Assembly (NCBI GenBank): GCA_003213495.1
Contig: QCMW01000001.1
Location: 1,117,363 to 1,181,362 of the forward strand
DNA: 64,000 nt
Reading direction: 5' to 3'
DNA from: SAR86 cluster bacterium AG-422-O05
Lineage (GTDB): Bacteria; Pseudomonadota; Gammaproteobacteria; Magnimaribacterales; D2472
Part shown: in pieces, positions 2,465 through 22,114 of the stretch
Position numbering within the stretch: position 1 is the first letter of the stretch
Layout: the number at the start of each line of letters is the position of its first letter
The notes under the pieces: generated by a model
The model's database searches: none
What the model was told of the DNA's origin: nothing
Seen by the model: the letters and a program-made list of their open reading frames with translations, nothing else
Position numbers and translations under genes: made by a program

Positions 2465-2482
2465 TATGACATAAATTTTAGA

Positions 2483-4162: not shown

Positions 4163-4204
4163 ATAAAATAAGATTCGGTTGTCTTCATAATATATACTTT
4201 AAAC

Positions 4205-4537
4205 ATGAATAAGTTAATACTTGCATTAATCTTAGTGCTACCTTTTTACATAAAAGCAGATTTTGATAATAAATGTTCTGTAATCATCACATTAAGATTT
4301 CAATCAAATGAAGATGCATATAAAGATGCAATTAATAAGATTAATCAATGTGAAAAGTATGATATTTTGTCTGTTACTAGTTTTTTAGAGGAATCCATAA
4401 GTAAAGTATATATCACAGACTTAATACAAAATTACTGCATGTTTAATCATCAAATCATTACTTTAATTGATGATAAGACTTCTAATTTAAGTTGCGTTCA
4501 CAGAGGCAAGCCAAGAGTTGATAGGCAACTCAAATAA
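4205..4537 (+). CDS. Small secreted hypothetical protein (4 Cys)
   Basis: Signal peptide MNKLILALILVLPFYIKA; TATACT 6 nt upstream of ATG. Confidence 0.65.
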   Translation: MNKLILALILVLPFYIKADFDNKCSVIITLRFQSNEDAYKDAINKINQCEKYDILSVTSFLEESISKVYITDLIQNYCMFNHQIITLIDDKTSNLSCVHRGKPRVDRQLK

Positions 4538-4927
4538 TTAACTAACGCAAAGATTTAATCCCATCATTACTAACACAACTATGGATGGCAGCCATACTAA
4601 TGGTCTTATCATTGGTATTGCGTACAAATTCACCGCAGCACCAACGAGATAAGCTATTCTTAGACCAAACCACACTTGAGCCAGTATTAAATTAACATCT
4701 CCTTTATCCATCACAACTGATAAAACTGCAAACGTTAAAAATAACGGTAATGATTGTCTTAAGTTATCACTTGCAGAAGCAAATCTGGCTGATAAATCAG
4801 TCATACCAGAGATATCACCACCAGTATAAGTCCAATTAACTAACGGTACCTTATGCAGTGAGAAACTCATTGTTAAAAAGAGATGCAAGACGTAGAACAT
4901 ACCTACACAAATTATTAAATTTTCCAT
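4538..4927 (-). CDS. MAPEG-family membrane protein
   Basis: 4 TM; R..AS.NL.QSLPLF and R.AY motifs; SD GAGGA upstream. Confidence 0.7.
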   Translation of the reverse strand: MENLIICVGMFYVLHLFLTMSFSLHKVPLVNWTYTGGDISGMTDLSARFASASDNLRQSLPLFLTFAVLSVVMDKGDVNLILAQVWFGLRIAYLVGAAVNLYAIPMIRPLVWLPSIVVLVMMGLNLCVS

Positions 4928-4950
4928 AATAAATCCTCTATATCGTTATA

Positions 4951-6906
4951 CTAATATTTTAAATTAATTTTTAATTCATCTAAATGACTTTCGTAATTTT
5001 TCCAATAATCCATTCCGCTTTTATAAATTGGTTGTCGAACCTGTTCTGCACTTGGTGTTTTTACTGATCGTTTTGATTTATAGAATTCAAGACAGGACTG
5101 TTCAAAAGGTATTTGACAATAATCAAGAATTTTTTTCACTGAATCTTCAAAGCTATTCACCACATCTTCATAATTAATAGATAGTATTTGGTTTGGAAGA
5201 ACTTTATTCCAATGATTCATAAGCTCAACATAATTATTATAATAACCGGCTAAATCTTTCAAATCGTAAGTAAATTCTTGGCCCTCAGCAAAAAGTTGTT
5301 TATAACAAGAAAAACACGCTGACATAGATGAACGCCTAATATCAATTATCTTTGCATTTGGTAGTATTAATTTTATAAGCCCAATGTGTCTAAAATTATT
5401 TGGCATCTTATCAATAAAATAAGGTTTATCAGATCTGAAAACTTCGCTATCTGAAATATATTTGTCTCCAATAAGTTTTAATTGAGGAGCAGACAGACTC
5501 AATAAGATATCAGGATAGCGTGAATCTATATCTTGAGTTTTTCTTTCGTTTAATCTTAGAGCAGTTGAAATAATATTTGGTAGCTCATGAGTTGGTTCAA
5601 CCATAGAATGTGAGGAAAGAATTTGCTCAATTAATGTAGATCCAACTCGCGGTAAGCCTAAAATAAATATTGGTGCTGAAGAATCTGAACCCCAATCAGA
5701 CTTCATTTGAAATAAATCTTCATTACATACATCCTTTTGATTTAAACAGTCTTGATGAAAGTCCTCTAAATTAAACAATGCTTTGCTTTTTTTAATTTCA
5801 TTTCCTTTTTTATAATTATCAAATGAATCATCAAAATTTTCTAAATCTTCATAGGCTTTGCCAAGTGCGAAATGCATGAATACTCTTTCATTTTCAGAAA
5901 TATATTTATCGTTAACCATTTCATTTAATGAAGCTACTTCTGCATCAGAAAACTTATAAGTTTTTAAATTAGCTAGACTCCAATAGGCATCTCCAAAGTA
6001 TTTATCGGTGTAATAAGCTTTTTTATAGGAACTAATAGATTTATTAAATTCTCCAGACGTTTTATATAAGTGCCCCATGGATAACATCACATCTGTATTT
6101 TTAGGTTCTAGATTTAATATATCGTTATATATTTTAATAGCTTCTTTGTACCTGTCTGTTCTGAACAAAGCAGTAGATAGCAACTTCATTGCATTAATAT
6201 TGGATTGGTTCTCATCATAAAAAAGTTGTGCATGTTTTAATGCTTCACCATATTTCTGTCTCTTTGTAAGAATATTTATGTAATCGTATTTAATTTTTGG
6301 ATTATCGGGATCAAATAATAATGCACTTTCTAGTAAAAACTCTGCATCTTCATATATGTTAAGATCACTTCCAATATTAGCTAATAGTCTCATCGCCTCT
6401 ATGTCATGAGGATGATCTCTTAAATATTCTCTGCAGATATGATCAGCTCTTACTAGCTTGCCTTCATGAGTATAGCTTAGTACGGTTTTTAATTCTGGAG
6501 GTAAATCTTTCAAATAAAATACATTTTTTTCTGCAAATTTAATAAGTTCTTCATTTGAATTTTCTAATGATAATATTCCTAGCCAAGATGATTGTAGTGA
6601 TGGATTATGCCTAACCGCTCTTAAATATGCTTTGAGTGCTCTATCCTTATTTTTTAATACAACATTATTGTGTCCAATTTCTTGATAAGCTCTTCCATAA
6701 TTAGGGTCAATTTGAATTAACTTGTCTAAACCTAATAAAGCTTCTTTAGTATCACTTAAGTATCTATGACATACAGATGTTAAATAAAAATATTCTTTAT
6801 TTGATATATTGCTTTTATATTTGTTACATAATTTTAAAGCACCATCAAAATCTCTATTCTGAATAGATAATTCAATTTCTTTAGATGGTTCCAGGTTTTG
6901 TTCCAT
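4951..6906 (-). CDS. TPR-repeat sulfotransferase family protein
   Basis: N-terminal TPRs; 5'-PAPS loop IFILGLPRVGSTLIEQILSSH, DKMPNNF, TPSAEQVRQPIY. Confidence 0.9.
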   Translation of the reverse strand: MEQNLEPSKEIELSIQNRDFDGALKLCNKYKSNISNKEYFYLTSVCHRYLSDTKEALLGLDKLIQIDPNYGRAYQEIGHNNVVLKNKDRALKAYLRAVRHNPSLQSSWLGILSLENSNEELIKFAEKNVFYLKDLPPELKTVLSYTHEGKLVRADHICREYLRDHPHDIEAMRLLANIGSDLNIYEDAEFLLESALLFDPDNPKIKYDYINILTKRQKYGEALKHAQLFYDENQSNINAMKLLSTALFRTDRYKEAIKIYNDILNLEPKNTDVMLSMGHLYKTSGEFNKSISSYKKAYYTDKYFGDAYWSLANLKTYKFSDAEVASLNEMVNDKYISENERVFMHFALGKAYEDLENFDDSFDNYKKGNEIKKSKALFNLEDFHQDCLNQKDVCNEDLFQMKSDWGSDSSAPIFILGLPRVGSTLIEQILSSHSMVEPTHELPNIISTALRLNERKTQDIDSRYPDILLSLSAPQLKLIGDKYISDSEVFRSDKPYFIDKMPNNFRHIGLIKLILPNAKIIDIRRSSMSACFSCYKQLFAEGQEFTYDLKDLAGYYNNYVELMNHWNKVLPNQILSINYEDVVNSFEDSVKKILDYCQIPFEQSCLEFYKSKRSVKTPSAEQVRQPIYKSGMDYWKNYESHLDELKINLKY

Positions 6907-6934
6907 AGGATAATTTTAATACACTTGCATAAAA

Positions 6935-6961
6935 AAAAGGCCAGTTTACAACTGGCCTTTT
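6935..6961 (-). terminator. Intrinsic terminator/stem-loop after TBDR1
   Basis: aaaaggccagtt-tac-aactggcctttt followed by a U-run on the minus strand. Confidence 0.8.
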
Positions 6962-6977
6962 AAATTTATATCTACGA

Positions 6978-9410
6978 TTAGAATTTATAAGATACTCTTA
7001 TACCAACATTTCTAGGTCTGTTAGTAGTAATTCTTGGAATATCATCCTGATCGTTATAGTAGAAGTTAGCTCTTTCATCAGTGATATTTCTAACAAAAAA
7101 TTCAACTTCTGTACCGTTAATATTTACACCATATGCTGCATCCCAAATTGTATAGGATGGTTGTTCAAGACGCTTAGCTGCCTCAAGTGAACTATATGCT
7201 TTATCAGCACTTTTCACAGCAACTTGTGTATATGCAGGATTACCTGCAAGCTCTGAATCAACTTTAACTCTAATGTTGTACTGGAGTTTTGGTGATAAAG
7301 GCATAGTACTTCCAACATTAGATATCTGAATAATTCTAGATTTATCCTCTGTCACTTCAGTATCATTATAGGAAACAGCACTAGCTACAGTTACGTTATC
7401 ACTTGGATACCATAAAATGTCAGCTTCCATACCTTTAATTTCTGCATCAGCAGCATTTTCAATAAATGTTAGTAGACCAACATTTACAGGATCAAACTGA
7501 GATACTTGAACGTCTGTCCAATCAACCCAGTAATACGAAGCATTCAATCTTAACGTTCCGTCTAACATGACAGTCTTAACACCTATTTCAGTATTAGTAG
7601 TATCATCAGTTCCATATGTAATTAACACTGATGGTAATGCTGAGTTTCTTGATGCTAAACCACCACCTCTATTGAAACCACCAGGTCTATAACCTTCTGA
7701 TCTTGTGAAGTACCACATGGTATCGTCATCAACAGTATATTTTGCAGACAGTTTTGTAATAGTATCATTCATATTTAATGGTTCAGTACTATGGTCACCA
7801 GACACATCATAGTCTCTTCCATTTGCAACGTTAGATCCTCTATATCCGAATTTAGATTGTCCTGTATAGTCAACATCTAAATCGTATTTTCTAGCACCAA
7901 CAATAACGTCTAGCTTATCTGATATTGGGAATGTTACCTCAGCAAAGTAAGCTGTTTGCTCTTCAGTTCTCTTAAGATCATTAAAGAATCTACATGCAGG
8001 TCTTCTTACACGACCTTCTCTGGACCAGGCTCCAGGTAAAGGATTATTTACTTGATAAGCAGCCCATGTACCTGCAGATGCAAATGGATGGTCAGTACCA
8101 AGATAACAATAATCATTTTCAGTTTCTAAAATACTTTCATCAATGAAAACACCAGCAGTATATGAGAATGGAAGATCACTTTCATCATTGCTTGAAACTC
8201 TAAATTCATGAGTTGTTCTTTGATTGTCATCAATCAGTTCAACTGAAACTGTAGCAGGTCCACAAAGTGTATATGCTGTATAGTTACATACATAATATGG
8301 TAACCATGCACCTACGTTTGCATAACCACTGTAGTCAACTTGCTGCTCTGATTCTCTCTCTAAGTATGCTCCAGTATATAAAGCATCTAATTTACCCATT
8401 CTTCCCTCTAAGGTTAAAGAAGTTTGTGAGAATGAGTCATCTAAAGTATCAGGAACAAATCTACTTACATTTAAATCGCCTTTAGCAGGGTCATAATCAA
8501 AAACACCATCAGCACTAATATCTTGGCTCATGTGAGTAATTAACATATCCCAATCATCACCAATTGATGATGCTGAAGAAATTCTAAAACCTTCATATGT
8601 TGCATCATTGAAGTTATCTTCTACAAGTGTTGAGTTATCTGAAACAACATGTGCTTGTGTTTGTGGATAGGAAGCAAAAGTTCCTCTACCTTCACCAGAC
8701 CACGTTCCGGCTACATTGTCGATATAACCGCCTTGCTCTGATTTATAGAAAACACCTCTAATTGACCAAACATCATTTATTAAAGGAATATTCATGTATG
8801 CGTCATATGAATAACTTGGATCACCGTGGGCAGTTGCATAATGAGACATATTAAAGCCACCTTCTTGAACATTGAATTTTGGCTTATTTGTAATCATTCT
8901 AACGGTACCTGCTTGTGAGCTTGCACCATACAGAGTTCCTTGTGGCCCAGGCAATACCTCAATCCGTTCCATATCAGCAACATATACATCAAGGTTTCTT
9001 CCTGGAACTTGTAAAGGTTGTTCATCTAAATATAAAGCTACGTTAGGTGTGGAACCCTGTGCAGCAGATAAGAAAACGTTTACCGGATCAACAGCCATAC
9101 CTCTTATATAAATTGTTGATTGACCAGGTCCTCTTCCGCCTGATGAAACATTTGGTAAAAATTGAACGTATTCATCAAAATTAGAAACGTTCATTTCTTT
9201 TAATGTTTCTTCTGTTAAAGCAGTAACTGTTACAGCCACTTTTGAAGCACTTTCATCCTTCTTGGTAGCAGAAACAACAACTTCTTCAATTTGTCTTTCT
9301 TGTGATTCAGCAGTTTGTGGAATCATTGCAGCAACAACTCCTAAAACCCCTAAAGAAAGCTTATTTTTAATTTTATTTAATTGTTCTTTTGTATTAATTA
9401 AATTAAACAT
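6978..9410 (-). CDS. TonB-dependent receptor (TBDR1)
   Basis: TonB box IEEVVVSA, plug GPQGTLYGASSQAG, C-terminal ...VSYKF; start set at ATG 9410 because of SD GAGGA. Confidence 0.93.
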   Translation of the reverse strand: MFNLINTKEQLNKIKNKLSLGVLGVVAAMIPQTAESQERQIEEVVVSATKKDESASKVAVTVTALTEETLKEMNVSNFDEYVQFLPNVSSGGRGPGQSTIYIRGMAVDPVNVFLSAAQGSTPNVALYLDEQPLQVPGRNLDVYVADMERIEVLPGPQGTLYGASSQAGTVRMITNKPKFNVQEGGFNMSHYATAHGDPSYSYDAYMNIPLINDVWSIRGVFYKSEQGGYIDNVAGTWSGEGRGTFASYPQTQAHVVSDNSTLVEDNFNDATYEGFRISSASSIGDDWDMLITHMSQDISADGVFDYDPAKGDLNVSRFVPDTLDDSFSQTSLTLEGRMGKLDALYTGAYLERESEQQVDYSGYANVGAWLPYYVCNYTAYTLCGPATVSVELIDDNQRTTHEFRVSSNDESDLPFSYTAGVFIDESILETENDYCYLGTDHPFASAGTWAAYQVNNPLPGAWSREGRVRRPACRFFNDLKRTEEQTAYFAEVTFPISDKLDVIVGARKYDLDVDYTGQSKFGYRGSNVANGRDYDVSGDHSTEPLNMNDTITKLSAKYTVDDDTMWYFTRSEGYRPGGFNRGGGLASRNSALPSVLITYGTDDTTNTEIGVKTVMLDGTLRLNASYYWVDWTDVQVSQFDPVNVGLLTFIENAADAEIKGMEADILWYPSDNVTVASAVSYNDTEVTEDKSRIIQISNVGSTMPLSPKLQYNIRVKVDSELAGNPAYTQVAVKSADKAYSSLEAAKRLEQPSYTIWDAAYGVNINGTEVEFFVRNITDERANFYYNDQDDIPRITTNRPRNVGIRVSYKF

Positions 9411-9482
9411 ATGAATCCTCATAGTTAGTTAATATAAATTGCAAATAAACTAGCCTGGTGACCCCAGAAGATTCCCCCCCAG

Positions 9483-9530
9483 AGAAGTTTAGCCATATTT
9501 ATAGACCAGCAATTTCTGTAAATCGGTCTT
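9483..9530 (-). ncRNA. SAM-II (SAM-alpha) riboswitch aptamer
   Basis: Minus strand AAGACC-GAUUU-ACAGAAA-UUGC-UGGUCU-AUAAAUAUG-GCUAAA-CUUCU: P1 AGACC/GGUCU, GAUUU loop, UUGC/GC(U)AA pseudoknot, A-rich L3, P2a AGAA/UUCU. Confidence 0.82.
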
Positions 9531-9537
9531 GATGACA

Positions 9538-9565
9538 ATCATAACATCTTAAAATAATGATGCAA
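9538..9565 (-). promoter_or_regulatory. sigma70 promoter for the riboswitch-TBDR1 transcript
   Basis: TTGCAT, 16 nt, extended -10 TG-T-TATGAT; predicted +1 near 9531, directly at P1 of the aptamer. Confidence 0.6.
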
Positions 9566-9664
9566 TATAGATATAAAAATTGCATATAAGTAAAGATAAA
9601 CAATTTATATAACTAGAAAATTTGTACTATTTATGTTTCACTAGATTTTAAATTACGCAGTTTA

Positions 9665-11155
9665 ATGAACAATTTAAGTAAGCCAAGATTCTTATTATCC
9701 ATACTTCTTATTGTAGTTATAACGACAATTGTTTCTTTAAATTCTGACATTTCAGAATCATTTTTTCTTAATCTTCAATCATCTTTATCTAAGTATCTTG
9801 GTTGGATGATCATTATATTAGCTAATGGTTTTTTAATATTTGCAATATGTCTGGTCTTTACAAAATATAAAAATATTAGACTGGGTGGCCCAAATGCTGT
9901 TCCTAAATATTCCTATGTAAACTGGATAGCTATGTTATTTAGTGCAGGTTTAGGTATTGGTCTCTTATTTTATGGTGTAGCTGAACCAATAATGCACCTA
10001 AATTCTTATCCTGGAATGCTTGATGACAATGTTTCATATAATGCAGGAAAGGCCATTGGATTAGCTAATCTTCATTGGGGTCTGCATGGTTGGGCCATAT
10101 ACTCATTACTTGGTCTTTGTTTTGCTTTTGCAGCATATAATAAAAAACTACCTTTTAGAGTAAGTTCACTCCTCGGAAAAAATGTTGCAAACAACAAGCC
10201 TCTAGCAGTAAGTATCGATATTATTGCGATTTTAACAACTGTCTTAGGAGTTACTACATCACTTGGTCTAGGCACAATTCAAATAAGCTCTGGTCTCTCG
10301 TATGTTTTCTCTGTGCCTGAAAGTTTTGTTAATCAAGTAATTATTATCGTAATAATTACATTAATTGGACTTGCTAGTGTTTGTTTAGGATTAGATAAAG
10401 GAATCAAAAGACTATCGCAAATTAATATGGTGCTTGCTACGACACTTATGATGTTCATTTTTCTATTTGGACCTACCGTTTTTATATTAAATGCATTAAT
10501 TCAAAATTTTGGATCCTATATAAATACACTAATTGAGTCTGCTACATGGACTGAAGTTTATGAATCGACAACTTGGCAAAATGGCTGGACATTGTTCTTT
10601 TATACATGGTGGTTTGCTTGGGCACCATTTGTTTCGTTGTTTATAGCTAGAATTTCTTATGGAAGAACAATTAAAGAGTTCATTATTGGTGTTTTATTTG
10701 TACCATCGTTAATAGTTTTTTTATGGATGGGAATCTTTGGTAATGCAGCTATATATCAAGTAATAAATGAAACAAGTCAATTGAATGAAATTGTAAACAA
10801 TAATTACACTGTTGCTCTTTTTGCTTTATTTGATGTTTACCCTATAGCAACGATAGTTTCTATGCTTGCGTTGCTAATCATTGTAACTTTTTTTGTTACG
10901 TCTTCTGATTCAGGAGCCTTAGTAGCTTCAATGCTTTCGTCTAAAAGTCATGTAGGTATTCACGATGATTCTCCGATTTTATCAAGAGTTACCTGGGCAA
11001 TATTGTTAGGCATTGTTGCGGCAGTTCTTTTATACAAAGGTGGTCTTACTGCACTTCAAACCTCAGTTGTAATATGTGGAGTGCCTTTTTCTATTATTGT
11101 TGTTTTTGCTTGTCGACAGTTTTATAAATCTTTAGAAAGTGAGCTAGAAGACTAA
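9665..11155 (+). CDS. BCCT-family (betaine/choline/carnitine) transporter
   Basis: WIAMLFSAGLGIGLLFYGVAEP, HWGLHGWAIY, WTLFFYTWWFAWAPFV, FFVTSSDSG. Confidence 0.93.
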   Translation: MNNLSKPRFLLSILLIVVITTIVSLNSDISESFFLNLQSSLSKYLGWMIIILANGFLIFAICLVFTKYKNIRLGGPNAVPKYSYVNWIAMLFSAGLGIGLLFYGVAEPIMHLNSYPGMLDDNVSYNAGKAIGLANLHWGLHGWAIYSLLGLCFAFAAYNKKLPFRVSSLLGKNVANNKPLAVSIDIIAILTTVLGVTTSLGLGTIQISSGLSYVFSVPESFVNQVIIIVIITLIGLASVCLGLDKGIKRLSQINMVLATTLMMFIFLFGPTVFILNALIQNFGSYINTLIESATWTEVYESTTWQNGWTLFFYTWWFAWAPFVSLFIARISYGRTIKEFIIGVLFVPSLIVFLWMGIFGNAAIYQVINETSQLNEIVNNNYTVALFALFDVYPIATIVSMLALLIIVTFFVTSSDSGALVASMLSSKSHVGIHDDSPILSRVTWAILLGIVAAVLLYKGGLTALQTSVVICGVPFSIIVVFACRQFYKSLESELED

Positions 11156-11301
11156 TCTAATTCTTCGTCAATTTTTTTTAATTCGTCTTCATCCATTTCA
11201 TCTTCATAAACAAGATTATCATTATTATTATTCATAAATTTTTTAGATATGATTAATGCTGCTGCAACAAATATTAGTATTATTCCGATTTGATATAACA
11301 T
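11152..11301 (-). CDS. Small single-TM protein with acidic tail (49 aa; not in ORF track)
   Basis: MLYQIGIILIFVAAALIISKKFMNNNNDNLVYEDEMDEDELKKIDEELD*; fills the gap and overlaps the BCCT stop. Confidence 0.6.
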   Translation of the reverse strand: MLYQIGIILIFVAAALIISKKFMNNNNDNLVYEDEMDEDELKKIDEELD

Positions 11302-11355
11302 AATTCATTAATTAATTTAGAATGTTTATCTTAACTGTTATTATTTCACTTATAA

Positions 11356-11904
11356 ATGGATGCTTTAAATAATATTCTTAATCGAGTTTCAGCACGAGAG
11401 CTCTCTATACCTCATCCAACAAAAGATGAAATGGATTTAGTATATAAGGCAGCATTGCGTGCTCCTGATCATGCTTGGCTTCGACCGAGTAGTTTTATTG
11501 AGGTCAGTGGAGATGGATTAAAAAAACTATCTTCAATTTTTTTTAAATTTGGAGAATCTATTAATGCATCTGATGAGATAAAAGAAAAATATAAAAACGC
11601 TCCTTACAGAGCGCCAATGATAATTATTTTAGTAAATACTGTAAAAGAACATCCCAAAGTTCCTGAAATTGAACAAAAACTATCAACAGCAACAGCAGCT
11701 CAAAACATAATGCTTGCTTTAAACTCAATGAACTATTCTTGTATTTGGAGAACAGGGAAATTAGCTTTTAATAGAAATGTTCAAAATGATCTAGGTCTGA
11801 AAGAGAATCAGGAAATCCTAGGATATCTCTATGTAGGCACAGAAACAGGAGTTAAAAAAAAGATTCCTGAATTAGATATTGATGATTTTGTCTCATATCT
11901 TTGA
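11356..11904 (+). CDS. Nitroreductase family protein (YdjA-like)
   Basis: NRVS, AALRAPDH..LRP, KVPEIEQ, AQNIMLA, WRTG. Confidence 0.88.
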   Translation: MDALNNILNRVSARELSIPHPTKDEMDLVYKAALRAPDHAWLRPSSFIEVSGDGLKKLSSIFFKFGESINASDEIKEKYKNAPYRAPMIIILVNTVKEHPKVPEIEQKLSTATAAQNIMLALNSMNYSCIWRTGKLAFNRNVQNDLGLKENQEILGYLYVGTETGVKKKIPELDIDDFVSYL

Positions 11905-11932
11905 ATTTAGTTTTTATATAGTGAGGAAAGTC

Positions 11933-12631
11933 TCATAATATAATCTTCTCTATATTATTAAGATCATTATGAATAATTTCTTCATTACTTAAACTTACTA
12001 AGTGAACATTGGTATCAGTCCCAAAACTAACAGAATACTTTGGAATATCATTTACAAGATGTAGGGCGCAAAAACCCTCTATAGCAATGCACTCATCGAT
12101 TTGTTTGTTATTGAGAATTTCTTTTACATAAGGAATCCTTTCAGGCTCTTCATCATAATGAGGACAACATACACCATCAACAAAACCAAGGCATGGCAAA
12201 ATAGCTTGGTGATCTTTCCATGAATCTGTTATGCCATTATTAAACCAGCATATTGCGCCTGCACTGACTCCACTCATAATTACTCCATTCTGATAAGCAT
12301 TATTTAAAATATTATCGAGGCCCCACTCTCTCCAAACCGCAAGCATGCTTTTTGTATTTCCTCCTCCAACAAAAACTATATCTTGTTCTGCAATATGTTT
12401 ATCTAATTTAATAGTTCTCTTAAAAAAATCTATATGAGAAGTTTTGCAATTTAGCGAATCAAAAGCTTTATAAAAATTCTCAATATAGCCTTGATCATCT
12501 CCAGTTGCGGTTGGAATGAAACAAATTGATGGATTTTTGTTTTTTGACTGATTAACTATATATTTTTCAATTTTTAAATCCTTTATTTGACGGCCAAATC
12601 CACCACCACCAATTGCAATAATTTGTTTCAT
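11933..12631 (-). CDS. Peptidase E / S51 family dipeptidase
   Basis: IAIGGG, FIPTA, FVGGGNT, GVSAGA nucleophile, CPHYD. Confidence 0.88.
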   Translation of the reverse strand: MKQIIAIGGGGFGRQIKDLKIEKYIVNQSKNKNPSICFIPTATGDDQGYIENFYKAFDSLNCKTSHIDFFKRTIKLDKHIAEQDIVFVGGGNTKSMLAVWREWGLDNILNNAYQNGVIMSGVSAGAICWFNNGITDSWKDHQAILPCLGFVDGVCCPHYDEEPERIPYVKEILNNKQIDECIAIEGFCALHLVNDIPKYSVSFGTDTNVHLVSLSNEEIIHNDLNNIEKIIL

Positions 12632-14226
12632 TATTCTTTCAACTCCATATTTAAAGTTTGTTTTAAAGGGTCAAGCCAAGGTTCAAAATATTCCCATTGA
12701 CCTACTCCTTTTTTATATATTGGTTGTCTAACTTGTTCTGAACTTGGAGTTCTAACTGTTCTCTTGGTTTTAAAAAAATTTAAACAATCTTCTTCAAAAT
12801 CAAGCTCACAAAAATCCAATAATTTTCTTATTTCAACTTCAGTATTTTCTACCATGTCCTCATATACGACTTTATGAACTTTATTTGGTAAAACTTTATT
12901 CCAATGCTGCATAAGTTTTAAATAATCAAGATAATAATTTCCAATCCTATTTTGAGAATAAGTAAAACCTTGACCAGAACCAAAAAGTTGCTTGTAACAG
13001 CTAAAACAGCAATCCATTGGATTTCTTCGTGTATCAATTATCTTTGCATTAGGAAGAATGAGGTGAATTAGGCCAATATGAACAAAGTTATTTGGCATCT
13101 TGTCTATAAAATAAGGTTTATCAGTCACTCTTTGGTCAAGTGTATTGTCAATATATGCCTTACCCATTTTTTTGAATTCTGATTTTTTCATATTTTTTAA
13201 GGCAGATGGATATTCAGATTTGCTAGAAGAATCTTTTTTATTAGCGATCTTTCTTGATAAAGCAATAATATTCTGTAACTCAGTTGTTCCTTCTACAAGA
13301 GAGTGTGATGATAAAATTTGCTCAACAAGTGTTGAACCCGATCTTGGAAGACCAACAACAAATATCGGATCAGAATTCTTGTCACCAACACCTTCGTATT
13401 CTTTTATAAAATCTTTAGTAAAAAAATTTATTAACTCATTACATTCATTTGTAAAGTCTCTTGAATCCCATGGAACCTGTTTACTTTTTATGGTGTTACC
13501 TTTTGTATATGCAGCCATAGCTGATTCAAAGTTTTTAGCATCTTCTTCAGCTTTACCTAAAGCAAATAGCAAGTGAAAATAATCATCAATTTTACAATCT
13601 TTATCATTTAACAGTTCATGCAAACTTTTCATATCACTTTCAGTGAACTTATAAGTTTTTAAATTAGCTAAACTCCAATATGCTTCTCCATATCCTGTTT
13701 TACTGGAAATAGCATTTTTATATGAATTAATTGCTTCGTCTAATCTTCCAACAGCTCTGAGCGTATGTCCGTAACTTAAATGAAGTTGGTTGTTTTTAAC
13801 CCCATGATCTTTAATAATTTTCTCAAAAATTGTTAAAGCCTGATCGTGTTGATTTGCTAAGGCCAAATTTACTGCTTTAAGAGTTAAGTATTGATTATTA
13901 TTTGCTTCTTTTTCTAAAAGAATATTTATATGTTTAAGAGCTTCAAATGGAAGCTGTCTTTTATATAAAAGATTCGCATAACTTAACCTAGCTGGGTCAT
14001 ATTCAGGAGATAAATCTAAAGCACGTGTGAGCAAATATCCAGCATCTTTATAGGCTCTAAATTTAATACCAATATCAGCCAATAGCTTCATTGCATTAAC
14101 ATCCATAGGATATTCCATAAGATAATCTCTTAGGATGGGTTCAGCTTTCTTTAGTTTTTCCTCTGAGATATATTTCGCGGCTTGTATTAAAGCTTCAGGA
14201 ATATTATCTTTAGAATATGCGTTCAA
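12631..14226 (-). CDS. TPR-repeat sulfotransferase family protein (paralog 2)
   Basis: TPRs; IFVVGLPRSGSTLVEQILSSH, DKMPNNF, RNPMDCCFS, TPSSEQVRQPIY; TTG start. Confidence 0.9.
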   Translation of the reverse strand: MNAYSKDNIPEALIQAAKYISEEKLKKAEPILRDYLMEYPMDVNAMKLLADIGIKFRAYKDAGYLLTRALDLSPEYDPARLSYANLLYKRQLPFEALKHINILLEKEANNNQYLTLKAVNLALANQHDQALTIFEKIIKDHGVKNNQLHLSYGHTLRAVGRLDEAINSYKNAISSKTGYGEAYWSLANLKTYKFTESDMKSLHELLNDKDCKIDDYFHLLFALGKAEEDAKNFESAMAAYTKGNTIKSKQVPWDSRDFTNECNELINFFTKDFIKEYEGVGDKNSDPIFVVGLPRSGSTLVEQILSSHSLVEGTTELQNIIALSRKIANKKDSSSKSEYPSALKNMKKSEFKKMGKAYIDNTLDQRVTDKPYFIDKMPNNFVHIGLIHLILPNAKIIDTRRNPMDCCFSCYKQLFGSGQGFTYSQNRIGNYYLDYLKLMQHWNKVLPNKVHKVVYEDMVENTEVEIRKLLDFCELDFEEDCLNFFKTKRTVRTPSSEQVRQPIYKKGVGQWEYFEPWLDPLKQTLNMELKE

Positions 14227-14239
14227 TTGTAATTAAATA

Positions 14240-14268
14240 AAAAAGGCTGCATCCAGTACAGCCTTTTT
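14240..14268 (-). terminator. Intrinsic terminator/stem-loop after TBDR2
   Basis: aaaaaggctg-catccagta-cagccttttt. Confidence 0.75.
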
Positions 14269-14286
14269 GTTAGTTATTAAATACTA

Positions 14287-16554: not shown

Positions 16555-16618
16555 AGTTTCCCCCAAATAAATAAATTATTGCTAAATATTATAATAAAAA
16601 CGTTTTATAGTAAATTTT

Positions 16619-18175
16619 TTAATAGCCCAATACACGACATACATCAATAGACCTGCTCGGTTTCATTGATATTTCTTCATTAAATGATAGAACATTAAAG
16701 ATATTAGAATCATATTGCTGCCATTCCATTAGTCGTTTGTTTGGATTACCTGTCTTTATAAAATTTACCCAAAAATCTTGGATTTTATTTGTTATAACTA
16801 TGTCTGTATCGCTTGTTGGTAACCAATCATCATGCGTATTAAAAATATATGGCAATTCTGCTCCATGGTAGGCACCCATTTCTCTACTTTTAGGACCATC
16901 TCTTACTCTATCAAACGAATAGAACCAGACTTGATTATTGGTGTTTTCTTTCAGAGATTTTGCAATAAAAGATGAGGGACACGTCCAGTTTCTAGCTGTT
17001 AATAGATAATTAAGTTTCTCCTTTTCATTTTTGATACTTGATGTGAGTGAATCTAATTTTTCTGTTTCGGTATAAAAGCCCCAACTTTCACGTTCATTAT
17101 AAAAATCATATAAATAATAATCCTTATCCAGATACATAAGCTCTTCATCAGCATTTGTGCCAATAATTAGATCAACGTGATTATAATTTCCTTGTTCATA
17201 AGATTTATAAAGCGACTCAAAAATAGAAAAATTATCTATAACAGGATAATAACCAACGTATCCAAATATTTCTTCAGCTGAATAAAGTAAAGTTACAGAA
17301 TCAACTGCTCGTAATTCTTTTAAGTTATTTAATTTATTAGTTTTGCCAATTAGTTTTTTAGATAACTTATCTGATAGTTCTGTTTGAATATCATAATCTA
17401 TATCTTTTTCTGCTATAGACCAGCCTGCGCTCTGATGAATAGCTTTATTAAATAAACCTTTTGCTAAGGGAGAAGCAATTAAATGTGCAACATTGGTGGC
17501 ACCAGCTGATTCACCTGAAATTGTAATATTTTCTGGGTCTCCTCCAACTTTAGCAATATTTTCTCTAACCCAATTTAATGACTCTATCAAATCAAGTAAT
17601 GCAAAATTAGATGCATCTAAATAAGGATGCGAGTAAAAACCAAAAACTCCAAGCCGATAAGAAACAGTGATAACAATTACACCCTTTCTGGATAAGTTTT
17701 TTCCAATATAATTTGGTTCAAATGACCAACCAGCTCTATTTGATCCCCCATGAATATAAATGAGTACAGGAATTTTTTCTTTATTATCAAGTTCATTAGG
17801 AACCCACATATTTAGATACAAACAATCTTCAGAAATTTCTGGTGTTTTAATATAATTAGGGTCGCCTCCAAATCCAGCAGCTACTCCCTTATACCAATTT
17901 ACAATTCTTGGGCCTTGCATGCATGCAGGTGCAAATTTATCCGCCACAAACCTATTTGTTTCAAATATTTTTGGTTGTGTAACTTCCCACCTCAGTGAAC
18001 CAATTGGTGGCTCTGCATAAGGCACACCCAAATAAATATCTACATCTTCAGAGGAGATTCCAACTATTTCTGTATCATTAACGTAAAAACTTGGGTTTGC
18101 AATTATTTCAAAAGTAGAAACATGTGCTGTCATTATTAATAAGATTTTAAGAGTATTTTTTTTCAGGTTATGCAT
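16619..18175 (-). CDS. Type-B carboxylesterase (cholinesterase fold)
   Basis: YLGVPYAEPP, SEDCLYLN, IHGG, GESAG nucleophile, HGAEL. Confidence 0.9.
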   Translation of the reverse strand: MHNLKKNTLKILLIMTAHVSTFEIIANPSFYVNDTEIVGISSEDVDIYLGVPYAEPPIGSLRWEVTQPKIFETNRFVADKFAPACMQGPRIVNWYKGVAAGFGGDPNYIKTPEISEDCLYLNMWVPNELDNKEKIPVLIYIHGGSNRAGWSFEPNYIGKNLSRKGVIVITVSYRLGVFGFYSHPYLDASNFALLDLIESLNWVRENIAKVGGDPENITISGESAGATNVAHLIASPLAKGLFNKAIHQSAGWSIAEKDIDYDIQTELSDKLSKKLIGKTNKLNNLKELRAVDSVTLLYSAEEIFGYVGYYPVIDNFSIFESLYKSYEQGNYNHVDLIIGTNADEELMYLDKDYYLYDFYNERESWGFYTETEKLDSLTSSIKNEKEKLNYLLTARNWTCPSSFIAKSLKENTNNQVWFYSFDRVRDGPKSREMGAYHGAELPYIFNTHDDWLPTSDTDIVITNKIQDFWVNFIKTGNPNKRLMEWQQYDSNIFNVLSFNEEISMKPSRSIDVCRVLGY

Positions 18176-18845
18176 TTTTATTATGAAATTCTATCAATCT
18201 TTTCTTCCAGAGCCTCGTAAGAATATTAAATTCTGTAGGTTTTACAATAAATTCTTGAAAAATTAAGTTTCTGTCGATCATCAAAATAACAATCTGATTG
18301 ATATCAGTATCAAACATTACATTATGCGCATTTGCATAGGCACAACATTGAAGAAAATAATCTTCAATCCACTCTCTCTTTTTCATTTTTCTAGCAGTCT
18401 TAAAATCTATCAGAGATGGCACTCCATTAATCTTACCAACACAATCTGCTGTTCCAGCATACAAACCATCAAGAATTAATCCCACCTCTAAACCCCACAC
18501 TTCAGTAATAGAATTAAGTCCAGATTCAATAAATTTTTCAGTCATTCTTTCAGCAAGAACTCCATCTTCATTATCAGAAAAATTTCTCCACTCCTGTTCA
18601 TTTAGATATAACTCTAAAGCCTCATGAACCATAGTTCCAATATCTGTACTCTGTTTAATGATTCTATTAGCCTCTTCTTCACCAACTCTATTGCGCCACT
18701 GCTGAATAGAATCTTTTTTATTGGAGGTTTTATTTAAAACCGTAGTAACACTAGGTACTGGATTATTTTTTGAATCTAAATAAAATCTACCTTCGTTACT
18801 CTCTTGTCTTTTTAACTCAGGATAAGTATAAATATTTGTTATCAT
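18168..18845 (-). CDS. PD-(D/E)XK exonuclease, phage/MGME1-like
   Basis: PSVTTVL, WR.RVG.EEA, GT.VH, YAGTADC, IDFKT, YFLQ..AYA; no Fe-S cysteine cluster. Confidence 0.8.
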   Translation of the reverse strand: MITNIYTYPELKRQESNEGRFYLDSKNNPVPSVTTVLNKTSNKKDSIQQWRNRVGEEEANRIIKQSTDIGTMVHEALELYLNEQEWRNFSDNEDGVLAERMTEKFIESGLNSITEVWGLEVGLILDGLYAGTADCVGKINGVPSLIDFKTARKMKKREWIEDYFLQCCAYANAHNVMFDTDINQIVILMIDRNLIFQEFIVKPTEFNILTRLWKKRLIEFHNKNA

Positions 18846-18868
18846 TACTTTTTACTTTGCGATTTAAA

Positions 18869-20356
18869 ATGTTTAAATTAAAAATTAATCCACTTTGGAA
18901 TATATCAGTAATATTTATTACTTTTTTCTTTTTAATTATTCTCTCATCATATGTTTTAAATAATCCAAATGAAAGTGCAAATACACTTAAAAATATTTAC
19001 GATTTTTTTGCTATTAATTTTGAATCATATTTTTTAATAATTAGTTTTTTAATTCTTATTTTTTTGATTCTTATAGCAATTACTCCTGTAGGTTCTAAAG
19101 TGCTTGTCCTTGAAGGAAAGGATACATTTTCTTATTTTTCATGGTGTTCCATGTTATTTGCAACAGGGCTGGGTGCTGCTTTGTTATATTGGTCTACAGT
19201 AGAATGGTTGGTATATTTTACAGACCCAGTGGATGGAGTTAGAACTGAGGAATCAATAAACTATCTAAAAGCAAGGTCATATCCTCATTTTCATTGGGGT
19301 TTAACAGGTTGGGCAATTTATTGCCTTCCGACTATTGCTTTTTCACTGGCTCTAATTAACAAACCTAATACACCTCTAACTTTTTCTGGAATATTGTTAA
19401 AAAAACAATCTGGAATATTAAGACTATTTCTAGATTTAATATTTATTGGAGCAATACTCACAGGTGCAGGAGTAGGCTTAACTCTATCATTCCCTTTAAT
19501 CTCAGCTGTGATATCAAAAGTATTTTTAGTTGATAAAAATATCTATTTAGATTTTTCAGCTTTGGTTTTATGTCTTCTAATATTTGGATCAAGTGTTTAC
19601 CTTGGTATTCAAAAAGGAATCAAAAGGTTAAGTAATTTAAATATAATTTTGGTAATAATATTTTTGTTGTTTATATTATTTTCTGGTCCGACTTCCTATA
19701 TTGTTAAAAATACCATCGAACCCCTTGGTTATATGTTTAGTAATTTTATTGATTTGAGTTTATCAAGTTCAAAATACAGTATTACTTGGACAGTTTTTTA
19801 TTGGGCATGGTATTTTGCTTTAGCTCCTGCTGTTGGAACTTTTATTGTCAATATTTCAAATGGAAAATCAATAAGAGAAATTGTATTTGGATGCTTGCTA
19901 ATTGGCTCTCTTGGGTGTTTTTTTCATATTGGTGTACTAAGTAACTCATCTATTTATTTGTTTGAGAATAATATATTTAATGCTCCTGAAGTTTATAGCT
20001 CTGGAACTGCTGGTCTTGAAACCATTGTTGTAGAAACTATTTCATCTTTAGACTTTGGCTTTTATTTATTAATAGCTTTTGGGGTGATAGCAATTATTTT
20101 TCTATGCACAACCTATGACTCCTCTTCCTATATTTTAGCTACGGCGGCGATGAAAAATTTTAAGGATGAACCCTCGCGAAATTTAAGATTATTTTTTGCA
20201 TTCATGCTCATAATTCAACCTGCCCTAATAATGTTTCTTGGCGGAGGGGATTCTTTTATGTGGCTTTTAGTTATATTTTCGGTACCATTGATATTCGTAA
20301 ATATTTTATTAGTAATCTCAATAGTTAAAAATGCAATTAAAATTAAAAAATCATAA
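18869..20356 (+). CDS. BCCT-family transporter (paralog 2)
   Basis: WCSMLFATGLG, FHWGLTGWAIY, KGIKRLS, WTVFYWAWY; start moved to ATG 18869 to avoid a head-on overlap. Confidence 0.88.
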   Translation: MFKLKINPLWNISVIFITFFFLIILSSYVLNNPNESANTLKNIYDFFAINFESYFLIISFLILIFLILIAITPVGSKVLVLEGKDTFSYFSWCSMLFATGLGAALLYWSTVEWLVYFTDPVDGVRTEESINYLKARSYPHFHWGLTGWAIYCLPTIAFSLALINKPNTPLTFSGILLKKQSGILRLFLDLIFIGAILTGAGVGLTLSFPLISAVISKVFLVDKNIYLDFSALVLCLLIFGSSVYLGIQKGIKRLSNLNIILVIIFLLFILFSGPTSYIVKNTIEPLGYMFSNFIDLSLSSSKYSITWTVFYWAWYFALAPAVGTFIVNISNGKSIREIVFGCLLIGSLGCFFHIGVLSNSSIYLFENNIFNAPEVYSSGTAGLETIVVETISSLDFGFYLLIAFGVIAIIFLCTTYDSSSYILATAAMKNFKDEPSRNLRLFFAFMLIIQPALIMFLGGGDSFMWLLVIFSVPLIFVNILLVISIVKNAIKIKKS

Positions 20357-21206
20357 AGCTAACATATTTGAACAATTGCCTTTTGATAACTCAAAACAAT
20401 CAATTGTTTTCCTTCCTGGAGCAGGAATGGATCACAGAATATTGTCGATGTTTAATCTTGAGGAATTGTATAATAATCATAATATCCTAGGTTTTGATTT
20501 GCCTGGTCATGGCTTTACTTCTGGTCCAATTGTTAATTCCATAGATGAACATTCTTTATTTTGTATCGATGTTTTTGATCAGTTAGATATCAAAGAGCCT
20601 ATATTAATTGGGCATAGCTGGGGTGGCCTGGTTGCCCTTGATCTTTCTACAAAAGTAAAACATAAGATGACAATTTGTATGAATATTGCTTATCCATTTT
20701 TGGTTGGAGATATGTTACTAGATTTTGCAAAAGGTAATCTTGATCAAGCAGTAGAGTTCTTGATGAAATATGGGATTCATAAATTTCCTAAAACTGAAAT
20801 TAAAACTAAGGGCTTTGGAACGATGGGTTCTGGTTTCTATGGTAGAAAAAAAGGCCAAATCAAATCACCATATGGAACAAAAGTTGTTGAAGATGATCCA
20901 GAAAGAGAAATAAAACTTTACCCATTGAAACGATTATTTAATCAGTCTGAAAAAGAGATTAGTTCAATTGATTTAAAATCCTGTAATTCATTTCGCTTAA
21001 CCGAAGAACAAATCTCAAGTTTAAAAAACATAAAATATATTTTTAGTGAAAAAGATAAGCTAGCAAGATTTAACCCAGAAAATATATTGTTACAAAATAT
21101 AGATCATGATAAAGATATTGTTATCTTAGAAGATGTTGGGCACTTTCCATACTTTGAAAGTCCTGAAGAAACAAATAAGGCTCTAATCTCCATAATCAAA
21201 AAATAA
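20331..21206 (+). CDS. Alpha/beta hydrolase
   Basis: DLPGHG, GHSWGG, DKL, VGHFP. Confidence 0.85.
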   Translation: MQLKLKNHKANIFEQLPFDNSKQSIVFLPGAGMDHRILSMFNLEELYNNHNILGFDLPGHGFTSGPIVNSIDEHSLFCIDVFDQLDIKEPILIGHSWGGLVALDLSTKVKHKMTICMNIAYPFLVGDMLLDFAKGNLDQAVEFLMKYGIHKFPKTEIKTKGFGTMGSGFYGRKKGQIKSPYGTKVVEDDPEREIKLYPLKRLFNQSEKEISSIDLKSCNSFRLTEEQISSLKNIKYIFSEKDKLARFNPENILLQNIDHDKDIVILEDVGHFPYFESPEETNKALISIIKK

Positions 21207-21208: not shown

Positions 21209-22114
21209 TTAGATTTCTTTATCAAAGAAGTCTGTTAACAATTTATAGCGCCTATCTTTATTTAGATCGCTAAATATCTCATGTCTACCATTACCAAATG
21301 TAAATAAGGATAAATTTTTAAAATGATTTTTTAAAAACGTGTATAGTCTCTCAACACCTTTACCATTGTCGCCAACAGGATCTTTAGAGCCTGCAACTAA
21401 TAAAATTCTTAAATTCTTATTATTGCTTATATAGTTTTCAACTTTAAATGTGCTTTCAATTCCTTCTACCATATCTAGCCAAAGTCCATTGGTAACTTTA
21501 AATCCGCATAAATCATCTTCAATATAATTGTCTACACTGTCTTCGTCATCAGATACCCAGTCAAACTCAGTTCTGTTTGGTTTAAAATTGCTATTAAATC
21601 TTTTGGTAGTAAGTCGCTCCATAATATTATTTAATTTATTTCTGCCATTAAAAAAAATATCTATTTTTATTATTAGTTTTTGGAACGTTATCAAAAATTG
21701 TGGATATTTTGCTGATGCCGATAGTATGAGTCCATCGATTATAAGTTCTTTTTTTAATAGCGATAAAGCTATCCATGAACCCATGCTGTGCGCAAACACA
21801 AATTGTTTTAAATCAGGAAAACTTTTTTTTGTATCATTTATAAGCAAATGGAAATCATCCACAACTTTATCCCATCCATTCTCATCATCGGAAAATTTAC
21901 CTCTATCTGTAGAATTATGTATTCTTTTTCCATGTCCTCTATGATCTATCGATATTACATGATACCCATCATTATTAAGCTTGGAGGTTAACCATTTATA
22001 TCTTCCTATATGTTCTGCTTTACCGTGACAAATATGAACTATTCCTTTTGATTGAGACATGTTTGATAAATGAACATATAGGTAGCTTTTATCAATAGAG
22101 CTATTTAAAATCAT
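21209..22114 (-). CDS. Lysophospholipase-like alpha/beta hydrolase
   Basis: HGKAEHIGRY, DHRGHG, AHSMGS, DPVG, RHEIF. Confidence 0.85.
   Translation of the reverse strand: MILNSSIDKSYLYVHLSNMSQSKGIVHICHGKAEHIGRYKWLTSKLNNDGYHVISIDHRGHGKRIHNSTDRGKFSDDENGWDKVVDDFHLLINDTKKSFPDLKQFVFAHSMGSWIALSLLKKELIIDGLILSASAKYPQFLITFQKLIIKIDIFFNGRNKLNNIMERLTTKRFNSNFKPNRTEFDWVSDDEDSVDNYIEDDLCGFKVTNGLWLDMVEGIESTFKVENYISNNKNLRILLVAGSKDPVGDNGKGVERLYTFLKNHFKNLSLFTFGNGRHEIFSDLNKDRRYKLLTDFFDKEI

Follow-up and report, generated by a model that had tools for sequence, protein, structure and literature searches.

A receptor clade with a TPST-like sulfotransferase partner, and two candidate quaternary-ammonium acquisition modules in a SAR86 genome

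A 64,000-nucleotide stretch of the genome of SAR86 cluster bacterium AG-422-O05 (contig QCMW01000001.1, positions 1,117,363 to 1,181,362; hereafter the window, whose own numbering is used below) carries, between positions 4538 and 21206, two modules that each combine a TonB-dependent receptor (TBDR), a sulfotransferase (ST) preceded by tetratricopeptide repeats (TPRs) and a carrier of the BCCT family. The receptors and STs (TBDR1 and ST1 in module 1, TBDR2 and ST2 in module 2) belong to clades that are encoded side by side and co-diverge in Alpha- and Gammaproteobacteria, and the catalytic domain of the ST is predicted to fold like the tyrosylprotein sulfotransferases (TPSTs). The best overall explanation, to which we give a probability of about 0.4, is a conserved acquisition module for quaternary-ammonium cargo in which the ST acts on one constant acceptor. 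The combination of TBDR, esterase and BCCT in SAR86 is already in print; for the TPST-like ST as the co-diverging partner of a receptor clade, our searches returned no paper.

Receptor and sulfotransferase are paired across Proteobacteria

Scanning one genome per species with an alignment of ST1 and ST2 yielded at least 585 matching stretches, 572 of which were confirmed; the best 80 of these constitute the remote loci (loci are numbered L, genomes G). They derive from Halieaceae, Woeseiaceae, Xanthomonadales/Lysobacterales, Steroidobacteraceae, Alteromonadaceae, Caulobacterales, Sphingomonadales, Hellea, Kordiimonas, Emcibacter and others. In 75 of the 80, a TBDR1/2-like open reading frame (ORF) is found no more than 2 kb from the ST; in the other five, the ST is at the start of its contig twice and has only ~300 nt downstream of it once, leaving L024 and L053 as true misses. 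In 78 pairs that satisfy stricter limits (ST, at least 350 bits; TBDR ORF, 2 kb or longer with a score of 300 bits or more), the receptor gene precedes that of the ST in 31, follows it in 37 and is divergent from it in 10, and the gaps between the two are mostly 4-170 bp.

FastTree trees were calculated for 79 pairs, with one ST per receptor and the pairs of the window included. The ST clades match gene order and each contains both Alpha- and Gammaproteobacteria, a mixture of classes which indicates that the ST-TBDR pair travels as a unit. Patristic distances within the two trees correlate with r = 0.91 (maximum 0.14 in 500 permutations), a value for part of which shared species history accounts, and in 66 of the 79 pairs the nearest neighbour of the ST is among the three nearest of its TBDR. 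That the two genes have no functional link, and are adjacent by chance or as leftovers of a local duplication, thus has next to no probability: the modules do stand side by side in this genus, and related genomes are non-independent samples, but the pairing is found in two classes and three gene orders, co-diverges, involves STs of different old clades and survives where the modules have become unlinked.

The same picture emerges from an independent sample of 400 evenly drawn Pseudomonadota genomes, each at least 90% complete, in which ST matches are bimodal (E <= 1e-120 in 31 genomes, or ~8%, and only weaker paralogues in 39). With two candidates scored per genome, all 14 places with a TBDR2-like receptor outside the SAR86 genome itself (E <= 1e-70) were within ~1.1 kb of an ST place, and none of the sampled genomes without a strong ST had a TBDR2-like receptor.

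Exclusive linkage of TBDRs to the high-scoring ST clade, as first indicated by searches around distant ST paralogues with TBDR1 and TBDR2 (0 of 20 loci), was overturned when all 18 TBDRs of the genome served as queries. Five of these 20 loci (L099, L100, L102, L103 and L111, from G434, G402, G237, G322 and G379, respectively; STs scoring 236-296 bits against ST2) have a different TBDR type of ~1000 aa beside the ST, so that the association of ST and receptor recurs outside the main clade. Two further loci are of unusual composition: in L110 (G086:C107:530-20322), five to six paralogues of the TPR-sulfotransferase stand in tandem, and L101 (G391:C4) contains a single 1740-aa open frame that gives two sulfotransferase-like matches. 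Full-text literature searches, whose coverage excludes subscription-only papers and supplements, returned no paper on TBDR-ST pairing; in PMC3542563, sulfotransferases are mentioned solely in O-chain islands.

Two module types in one genome

The genome, which comprises 1.28 Mb in two contigs and is an estimated 96.7% complete, encodes 18 TBDRs with a Plug domain, two BCCTs and two STs of this type; both BCCTs and both STs sit in the same 17 kb, and the two-module arrangement exceeds chance. Gene calls and Pfam matches on the ORFs of the window, from which the architecture of the region was derived (Table 1), reproduce the repeated TBDR/ST/BCCT layout noticed in an earlier reading of this DNA made from the sequence alone, and its inference of paralogy is borne out for receptors and STs alike. 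TBDR1 and TBDR2 share 34% identity (E = 3e-126, 385 bits) and are each other's best match in the genome, where the best-scoring of the remaining 16 TBDRs reaches 136 bits; ST1 and ST2 are 44% identical (E = 3e-157), and the more distant BCCT1 and BCCT2 31% (E = 4e-46). The sequence-only reading had staked its proposal on conservation of the linkage in related genomes and on congruent TBDR and ST phylogenies. The neighbourhoods and trees described above agree with both, and the three-part linkage is kept elsewhere.

Its notion of a duplicated module needs qualification: the parts are paralogous but do not make up one duplicated module. In the tree, ST1 is placed in a group with STs that are linked to BCCT1 in Woeseiaceae, Hellea, Parvularculaceae and an uncultured alphaproteobacterium, and ST2 is sister to the STs of Haliea. 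The modules are two anciently diverged types with orthologues in Alpha- and Gammaproteobacteria, placed side by side, and did not arise by recent duplication. They lie hundreds of kb apart, each with its own BCCT, in the sister family f2 (G028, G031, G037 and G040; families of the order are denoted f1 to f4). There, module 1 has the order TBDR1>ST1>BCCT1 (L087, L088, L091) and module 2 reads TBDR2 ... BCCT2<>ST (L086, L089, L090, L094), accompanied by the carboxylesterase in L086 only. Within the genus of the SAR86 host itself, the position of module 2 occurs in two versions; in L095 and L097 the ST branches deeply and the TBDR2-like receptor is a different one, which suggests that module versions have been replaced or differentially lost within a single genus. 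The gene order at these two loci (L095, G015, 1524-8224; L097, G008, 14044-19899) is TBDR, hydrolase, BCCT2 <> ST, 225-aa ORF, peptidase.

Structure and conservation of the sulfotransferase

In alignment A2, whose 68 sequences remained from 96 after truncated rows, over-long rows and near-duplicates had been left out, P294, R295, G297, S298 and T299 (PRxGST) as well as R400 and R401 are invariant, and S409 is conserved in at least 90% of the sequences. The PRxGST and RR...S motifs align to the loops that bind 3'-phosphoadenosine 5'-phosphosulfate (PAPS) in solved sulfotransferases (the CurM ST and a plant ST); other conserved blocks are E316, DKMPNNF and a C-terminal R...T.S..QVR.P. Neither ST1 nor ST2 has an N-terminus resembling a signal peptide, such as was read on the carboxylesterase, the gamma-glutamyltranspeptidase (GGT) and the 110-aa ORF of the region.

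The AlphaFold2 model of ST2 (pLDDT 92.8, pTM 0.89) consists of two domains in a single fixed arrangement. Its residues 282-531 match TPST1, TPST2 and a tick TPST with Z-scores of 21.8-22.6 and r.m.s.d. values of 2.6-2.8 Å over 235-240 residues, the best match being TPST1 (5wrj; Z 22.6, r.m.s.d. 2.7 Å over 238 residues). The top seven fold matches of this domain are all TPSTs, followed by the CurM and olefin-synthase sulfotransferases (Z 17.9-18.0), and residues 5-250 match OGT and consensus TPRs (fold Z 17-19; sequence E = 6e-9). These comparisons point to a cytoplasmic PAPS-type sulfotransferase with a TPST-like fold and OGT-like TPRs, whose activity is predicted from the model and the motifs.

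The likeness to human TPST1/2 and the tick enzyme resides in the catalytic fold, at 19-21% identity and with the PAPS motifs kept, but sequence similarity is marginal (E about 3e-3). Moreover, unlike the TPSTs and RaxST, the ST has a large N-terminal TPR superhelix and neither a membrane anchor nor a secretory location. A TPR superhelix that feeds a transferase domain is also characteristic of OGT and SPINDLY; in contrast to these, however, the catalytic domain is a sulfotransferase and not of the GT-B type, and no protein substrate of the ST is known.

When three clades were compared (63 of the 96 sequences: 16 in A, 10 in B and 37 in D; rows from the host's own order, of Haliea type and from L039, L057 and L059 left out), 134 ST columns were found to be conserved identically in all three, 93 of them in the 251-residue catalytic part, and two to be clade-specific. 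The corresponding numbers for the TBDR are 80 of 759 columns and six. That the ST is nearly invariant across module types suggests that every type would present the same acceptor group to it.

A TPST-like fold would also befit an enzyme whose sulfated peptide or metabolite is secreted and then re-imported through the TBDR, as with sulfated RaxX or methanobactin. Methanobactin operons reportedly combine a sulfotransferase with a TonB-dependent transporter. Both sulfotransferase and TonB are mentioned in a paper on methanobactin gene clusters (PMC3621798). We nevertheless hold such a secreted scavenger to be very improbable. The short ST-TBDR gaps leave no room for a precursor gene, and neither exporters nor biosynthetic genes recur among the neighbours, in which small ORFs were not searched systematically. 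In addition, the 1.28-Mb host probably has few biosynthetic genes and, unlike in the RaxST-RaxX system, no RaxX-like precursor or exporter was seen and the partner gene of the ST encodes a TonB-dependent receptor.

A tyrosine-rich loop in the receptor

The AlphaFold2 model of TBDR2 (pLDDT 89.7) is a barrel with a plug, the best Foldseek match of which is FyuA (E = 1e-40, TM 0.88), with Fiu, FhuE and FptA also matched; the fold search thus returned generic siderophore-type receptors only, at 11-16% identity, and gave no hint of the cargo. A conserved LEEVxVTA-like stretch that follows the signal region in ST-linked receptors is presumably the TonB box.

The receptor alignment contains 68 of the 72 available ST-linked sequences, three contig-truncated rows and one near-duplicate having been dropped. 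D346, Y347 and Y350 of TBDR2, which form a DYxxY motif, are among its 36 invariant columns, and the motif opens a Tyr/Asp-rich stretch devoid of K/R in all aligned receptors. In the TBDR2 model, DYxxY marks the end of strand 328-346 and the beginning of a 29-residue loop, which contains three short helices and by strand counting is probably extracellular loop 4, between strands 7 and 8. In each of 79 sequences, the window densest in Tyr adjoins DYxxY, and the contrast in Tyr density between ST-linked and other TBDRs is modest (median 7 vs 5 per 30 residues). On the basis of the model, the loop could be a cation-binding site as such, or a target of sulfation.

In the latter case, the ST would sulfate the loop-4 tyrosines of its own TBDR precursor in the cytoplasm and thereby create an anionic aromatic site for cationic cargo. 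Modification of the receptor would account for the fact that the co-diverging ST-TBDR pair is the only constant of the module, for the near-invariance of the ST across module types, for the combination of a catalytic domain closest to TPSTs with OGT-like TPRs, and for the invariant motif with its K/R-free loop and adjoining Tyr peak; a precedent may be found in RaxST, which reportedly sulfates the outer-membrane protein Omp1X (PMC4892823). Such a target is our second guess for the acceptor of the ST, but we consider the mechanism unlikely, given that the enrichment in Tyr over other TBDRs is modest, that the ~1000-aa TBDR type next to five of the 20 distant STs has neither DYxxY nor such a loop, that the host shows no source of PAPS (see below), and that a sulfated precursor is not known to pass through Sec and BAM. 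It would, moreover, leave the tight coupling of ST and BCCT unexplained.

The carrier and the neighbouring genes

A BCCT gene occurs in 11 of the 80 remote loci. Six of these carriers are BCCT1-like and accompany type-1 pairs, and four are BCCT2-like and accompany type-2-like pairs; the sole exception to this match of subtypes is L037, in which a BCCT1-like gene is 8.7 kb away from a pair of divergent type. The reading frames of ST1 and BCCT1 overlap or nearly touch in L029, L082, L083 and L087, and in L102 a BCCT is 1.8 kb away from a distant ST paralogue with a different TBDR type. Across 41 genomes from the order, the ST is distributed over families just as the BCCT is (f1, 22/24; f2, 5/6; f3, 0/5; f4, 0/5), and there are at most two BCCTs in any genome, located beside STs except in G034; these genomes being related and not independent, the distribution is a lineage-level pattern and not a statistic.

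Of the two carriers, BCCT1 passes NCBIfam model TIGR00842 (448.6 against a cut-off of 407.55) and stays below the glycine-betaine BCCT equivalog NF047988 (betaine_BCCT; 484.6 against 650). BCCT2 is below every NCBIfam cut-off (NF047988, for example, 224.4 against 650), and both score below the cut-offs of the BetT and CaiT models.

For an inventory of neighbouring genes, stop-to-stop ORFs within 8 kb of an ST were clustered and representatives scanned with Pfam, spurious antisense clusters being ignored. The most frequent neighbours are aldehyde dehydrogenases (16 loci), short-chain dehydrogenases/reductases (SDR; 15), class-III aminotransferases (15), LysR (10) and ABC ATPases with TOBE (9), followed by BKACE, DMGDH-like proteins and S9 peptidases (7 each), MR_MLE, M20 and carboxylesterases (6 each), and Ldh_2, M19, DAO and ADH_Zn (5 each). 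In Haliea (L004-L006), Marinicauda (L059) and L039, the TBDR2-ST2 pair is found with LysR, SDR, ADH_Zn, carboxylesterase, BCCT2 and BKACE; in Hellea and sphingomonads, TBDR1-ST1 is accompanied by Ldh_2 or MR_MLE and aldehyde dehydrogenase, and also by DMGDH-like genes. We take BKACE, DMGDH, MR_MLE and the dehydrogenases to belong to the catabolism of carnitine, betaine and hydroxyproline-betaine. By analogy with these loci, the neighbours suggest nitrogenous onium compounds, similar to carnitine, betaine or hydroxyproline(-betaine), as the cargo. Carboxylesterase is found together with TBDR2, ST2 and BCCT2 in L004, L005, L059 and L086; this recurrence and the signal-peptide-like N-terminus of the enzyme fit ester cleavage in the periplasm, followed by uptake through the BCCT.

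The sequence-only reading had put forward outer-membrane import, hydrolysis and BCCT uptake of sulfonium or quaternary-amine compounds as part of a sulfur-scavenging theme. The quaternary-amine half of this idea agrees with the recurrent neighbours, but its organosulfur half finds no support: nothing specific to such cargo was found among the neighbours of the ST loci, although dimethylsulfoniopropionate could still be a BCCT substrate. The GGT, which had been enlisted for the same theme, adjoins module 1 only in the genus of the host (L095, L096) and is not beside it in the sister-family loci L087, L088 and L091, and the "AcuI" said to be present elsewhere in the window corresponds only to an ADH_N/ADH_zinc_N ORF at 35794-36771.

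Expression

Metatranscriptome contigs from four marine studies were placed on the region at 90% likeness or more, and parts with little or no cover were not taken as silent. Bins of TBDR1 and TBDR2 have word depths of ~5-160 (16-123 for the TBDR1 contigs, in four studies) and those of ST, BCCT and esterase mostly ~0-8, with low-depth contigs on ST1; as genes cannot be ranked by the depth of contigs, which may also stem from carried-over DNA, this contrast is a hint only. In two studies, TBDR1 contigs end at 6955-6958, within the first of the two terminator-like hairpins that separate receptor and ST genes. By virtue of these hairpins, large amounts of receptor and little enzyme would be produced; together, hairpins and contig ends fit abundant receptor mRNA with little read-through into the ST gene.

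Proposed mechanism and the donor problem

We propose that the cargo of the modules is a quaternary-ammonium compound of the choline, carnitine or betaine type and, in module 2, an ester thereof. The TBDR would bring it across the outer membrane at low ambient concentration, the esterase would, where needed, de-esterify it in the periplasm, and the BCCT would move it into the cytoplasm, where the ST may act on a single constant acceptor and not on the variable body of the cargo. The module as such is reasonably supported, with a receptor powered by TonB, an esterase in the periplasm as an optional part and a BCCT that serves compounds of the choline, carnitine or betaine type. More tentative is the identity of the acceptor, for which our leading guess, itself rather doubtful, is that the ST would O-sulfate the choline- or carnitine-type head group, once imported, at its free hydroxyl. 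A step directed at the cargo is favoured by the tight coupling of ST and BCCT and by the ST paralogue of L102, which sits between another receptor type and a BCCT.

Besides the hint-level nature of the expression contrast, several observations weigh against this proposal. The BCCT is limited to a minority of the remote loci, many of which are bare ST-TBDR pairs, so that the onium cargo is an extrapolation for the rest. Conversely, a sister-family genome assembled in one contig and 94% complete has a BCCT2-like gene standing alone (L118, G034:C1:501000-520900), with no ST, TBDR or carboxylesterase within 9 kb of it and no ST genome-wide. We know of no bacterial choline or carnitine sulfotransferase, and a protein-modifying enzyme with protein-binding TPRs as the closest fold is a poor fit to a small-molecule acceptor. 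Finally, canonical sulfate activation is missing. The host genome encodes no Sat-type sulfurylase (PF01747), SulP (PF00916) or sulfatase (PF00884), and no protein of the CysD/CysH type, PF01507 matching only a PP-loop ORF below the cut-off. Full-length adenylylsulfate (APS) kinase is likewise absent from the host and from all 30 genomes of f1 and f2, but present in one f4 genome and in five of five ST/TBDR-bearing genomes of other families, so that a PAPS-dependent step has no visible donor here. These negatives agree with the lack of sulfate uptake and assimilatory reduction described for SAR86 in PMC3358033. The host still keeps its two STs with intact PAPS motifs.

A 136-aa ORF named adenylylsulfate kinase in databases was considered as proof of PAPS synthesis and rejected, since its Pfam match is partial (PF01583, 30 bits against a cut-off of 21.1, covering positions 5-91 of 152; NCBIfam 31.9 against 127), its neighbour is NMNAT-like and its co-distribution with the ST is thin and at the level of families. 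It forms a two-gene unit (G000:C1:755135-755921; L084:957-1749, minus strand) with a 129-aa nucleotidyltransferase bearing HxGH and ISxTxxR motifs, and is preceded by a 367-aa methyltransferase-like ORF. The 129-aa protein resembles NMNAT and cytidylyltransferases, always follows the 136-aa protein and retains 75-89% identity between two families. Like the ST, the unit occurs in f1 and f2 and not in f3 and f4, a comparison of two families with two that has mismatches in G005, G019 and G034 and in G020, G022 and G040. It may represent a minimal pair for sulfate activation or, by analogy, equally well a split NadR-like pair for NAD salvage. The combined scenario of a bacterial TPST that sulfates the DYxxY loop of its own receptor with PAPS from this minimal two-protein pathway is, in our estimation, quite unlikely.

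The missing donor could be circumvented if the ST worked as a PAP shuttle, stripping imported sulfate esters (aryl sulfates, perhaps choline-O-sulfate) and passing the sulfate to an acceptor or to PAP, with no need for PAPS synthesis. A genome without sulfatase or canonical PAPS synthesis that maintains two STs with intact nucleotide-binding motifs beside its only two BCCTs would suit such a sulfo-exchange. However, thermodynamics very strongly disfavours the transfer of sulfate from an alkyl sulfate ester to PAP, and the product would be useless here without a PAPS reductase. As other bacteria with the module make PAPS normally and no neighbouring gene indicates a sulfated cargo, we regard sulfo-exchange as improbable.

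Relation to known systems

TBDRs dominate the expressed outer-membrane proteins of SAR86 and of many marine and soil Proteobacteria, and few of them have known cargo or accessory factors. The present receptor clade has an obligate, highly conserved cytoplasmic partner of TPST-like fold. Should the ST act on the cargo, the turnover of choline- or carnitine-type osmolytes would include an unrecognised sulfation step; should it act on the receptor, this would be the first sulfotyrosine-dependent bacterial transporter. Two STs in a genome without canonical PAPS synthesis constitute a testable puzzle about the sulfur metabolism of a bacterial group that is among the most abundant in the ocean.

Like siderophore-uptake, carbohydrate-utilisation (CUT) and polysaccharide-utilisation (PUL) loci, the modules cluster a receptor with a 22-strand barrel and plug with an inner-membrane carrier and degradative enzymes; unlike in those TonB nutrient-uptake loci, the constant partner is a cytoplasmic sulfotransferase, and no iron, sigma/anti-sigma or SusD-type partner was seen. 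BKACE, DMGDH and MR_MLE families beside the pair in Haliea, Marinicauda, Hellea and sphingomonads recall clusters for carnitine, betaine and hydroxyproline-betaine, although these families are absent from the window and their substrates were judged by family names only. The closest counterparts in print are the SAR86 loci of Dupont et al. 2012 (PMC3358033), for which a TBDR, an esterase and a choline/carnitine/betaine transporter were proposed to cleave esters such as betaine lipids and take up the head group. Kind of organism, gene combination and ester-cleavage idea are the same, an ST of 71% identity being labelled "SAR86 cluster bacterium" in one source, but sulfotransferases have 0 occurrences in that paper and neither an ST-receptor pairing nor an occurrence outside SAR86 is described.

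Other features of the region

The genes of the region and its surroundings are collected in Table 1.

Table 1 Features of the two modules and adjacent genes (window coordinates)
Feature	Position	Strand	Evidence and context
Gamma-glutamyltranspeptidase (GGT)	2483..4162	-	Pfam G_glu_transpept 527 bits; N-terminus signal-peptide-like
110-aa ORF	4205..4537	+	No Pfam/NCBIfam match; N-terminus signal-peptide-like; beside MAPEG in L095-L097
MAPEG-family membrane protein, downstream of ST1	4538..4927	-	Pfam MAPEG 36.2 bits; in L095-L097
ST1, TPR + Sulfotransfer_3, 651 aa, module 1	4951..6906	-	Sulfotransfer_3 143.1 bits (cut-off 27) and TPR families
Terminator-like hairpin, TBDR1 stop to ST1 start	6935..6961	-	12-bp stem, then T run
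TBDR1, ST-linked receptor clade, 814 aa	6978..9422	-	Pfam Plug 60.8 bits
TBDR1/BCCT1 divergent intergenic region	9423..9664	.	Site of the SAM-II element of the sequence-only reading
BCCT1, betaine/choline-type carrier, 496 aa, divergent from TBDR1	9665..11155	+	Pfam BCCT 543.3 bits (cut-off 27)
NAD(P)H nitroreductase between the modules	11356..11904	+	Pfam Nitroreductase; NCBIfam PRK10828 145.7 bits, below cut-off 183; syntenic in L095-L097
S51 peptidase (PepE/cyanophycinase-like), downstream of ST2	11933..12631	-	Pfam Peptidase_S51 173 bits
ST2, TPR + sulfotransferase, 531 aa, module 2	12631..14226	-	Sulfotransfer_3 164.8 bits (cut-off 27)
Terminator-like hairpin, TBDR2 stop to ST2 start	14240..14268	-	12-bp stem, then T run
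TBDR2, ST-linked receptor clade, 759 aa	14287..16566	-	Pfam Plug 51.8 bits
Type-B carboxylesterase, upstream of TBDR2	16619..18175	-	Pfam COesterase 308.6 bits (cut-off 27), profile positions 16-503/515
225-aa ORF, weakly PD-(D/E)XK-like	18168..18845	-	PDDEXK_1 17.6 bits, below cut-off 22; in L095, L097
BCCT2, divergent carrier	18770..20356	+	Pfam BCCT 319.3 bits (cut-off 27)
Alpha/beta hydrolase, downstream of BCCT2	20331..21206	+	Abhydrolase_6 63.9 bits
Hydrolase_4 (lysophospholipase/monoacylglycerol-lipase-like), flanks module 2	21209..22114	-	Pfam 149 bits; NCBIfam lysophospholipase L2 48.9, below cut-off

Two single features named in the sequence-only reading fared less well than its architecture. 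A SAM-II element at module 1 has no counterpart in Rfam, which gave no family at gathering score over the whole window and, on 9350-9750 at E <= 10, two unrelated matches at chance level and no SAM family. The "nuclease" of module 2 is present as the 225-aa ORF, but only its sub-threshold PD-(D/E)XK match speaks for that function. The start codon of BCCT2 is uncertain, its Pfam match beginning at residue 47, and the alpha/beta hydrolase adjoins BCCT2 in L095 and L097 and is nearby in L086 and L089.

The region is flanked at 23471-26062 by a TspO/MBR protein, a Na+-dependent nucleoside transporter and a 2OG-Fe(II) oxygenase. Taken together with the MAPEG protein, nitroreductase, GGT and carboxylesterase, this stretch abounds in families that are more familiar from the xenobiotic metabolism of eukaryotes. 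A phosphorus theme is apparent further along the window, where a CarboxypepD_reg-type TBDR adjoins a PhoD-like phosphatase (26111-30377) and a phytase beside another TBDR is followed by a PHO4 phosphate carrier, PPK2 and Ppx/GppA (45854-53311).

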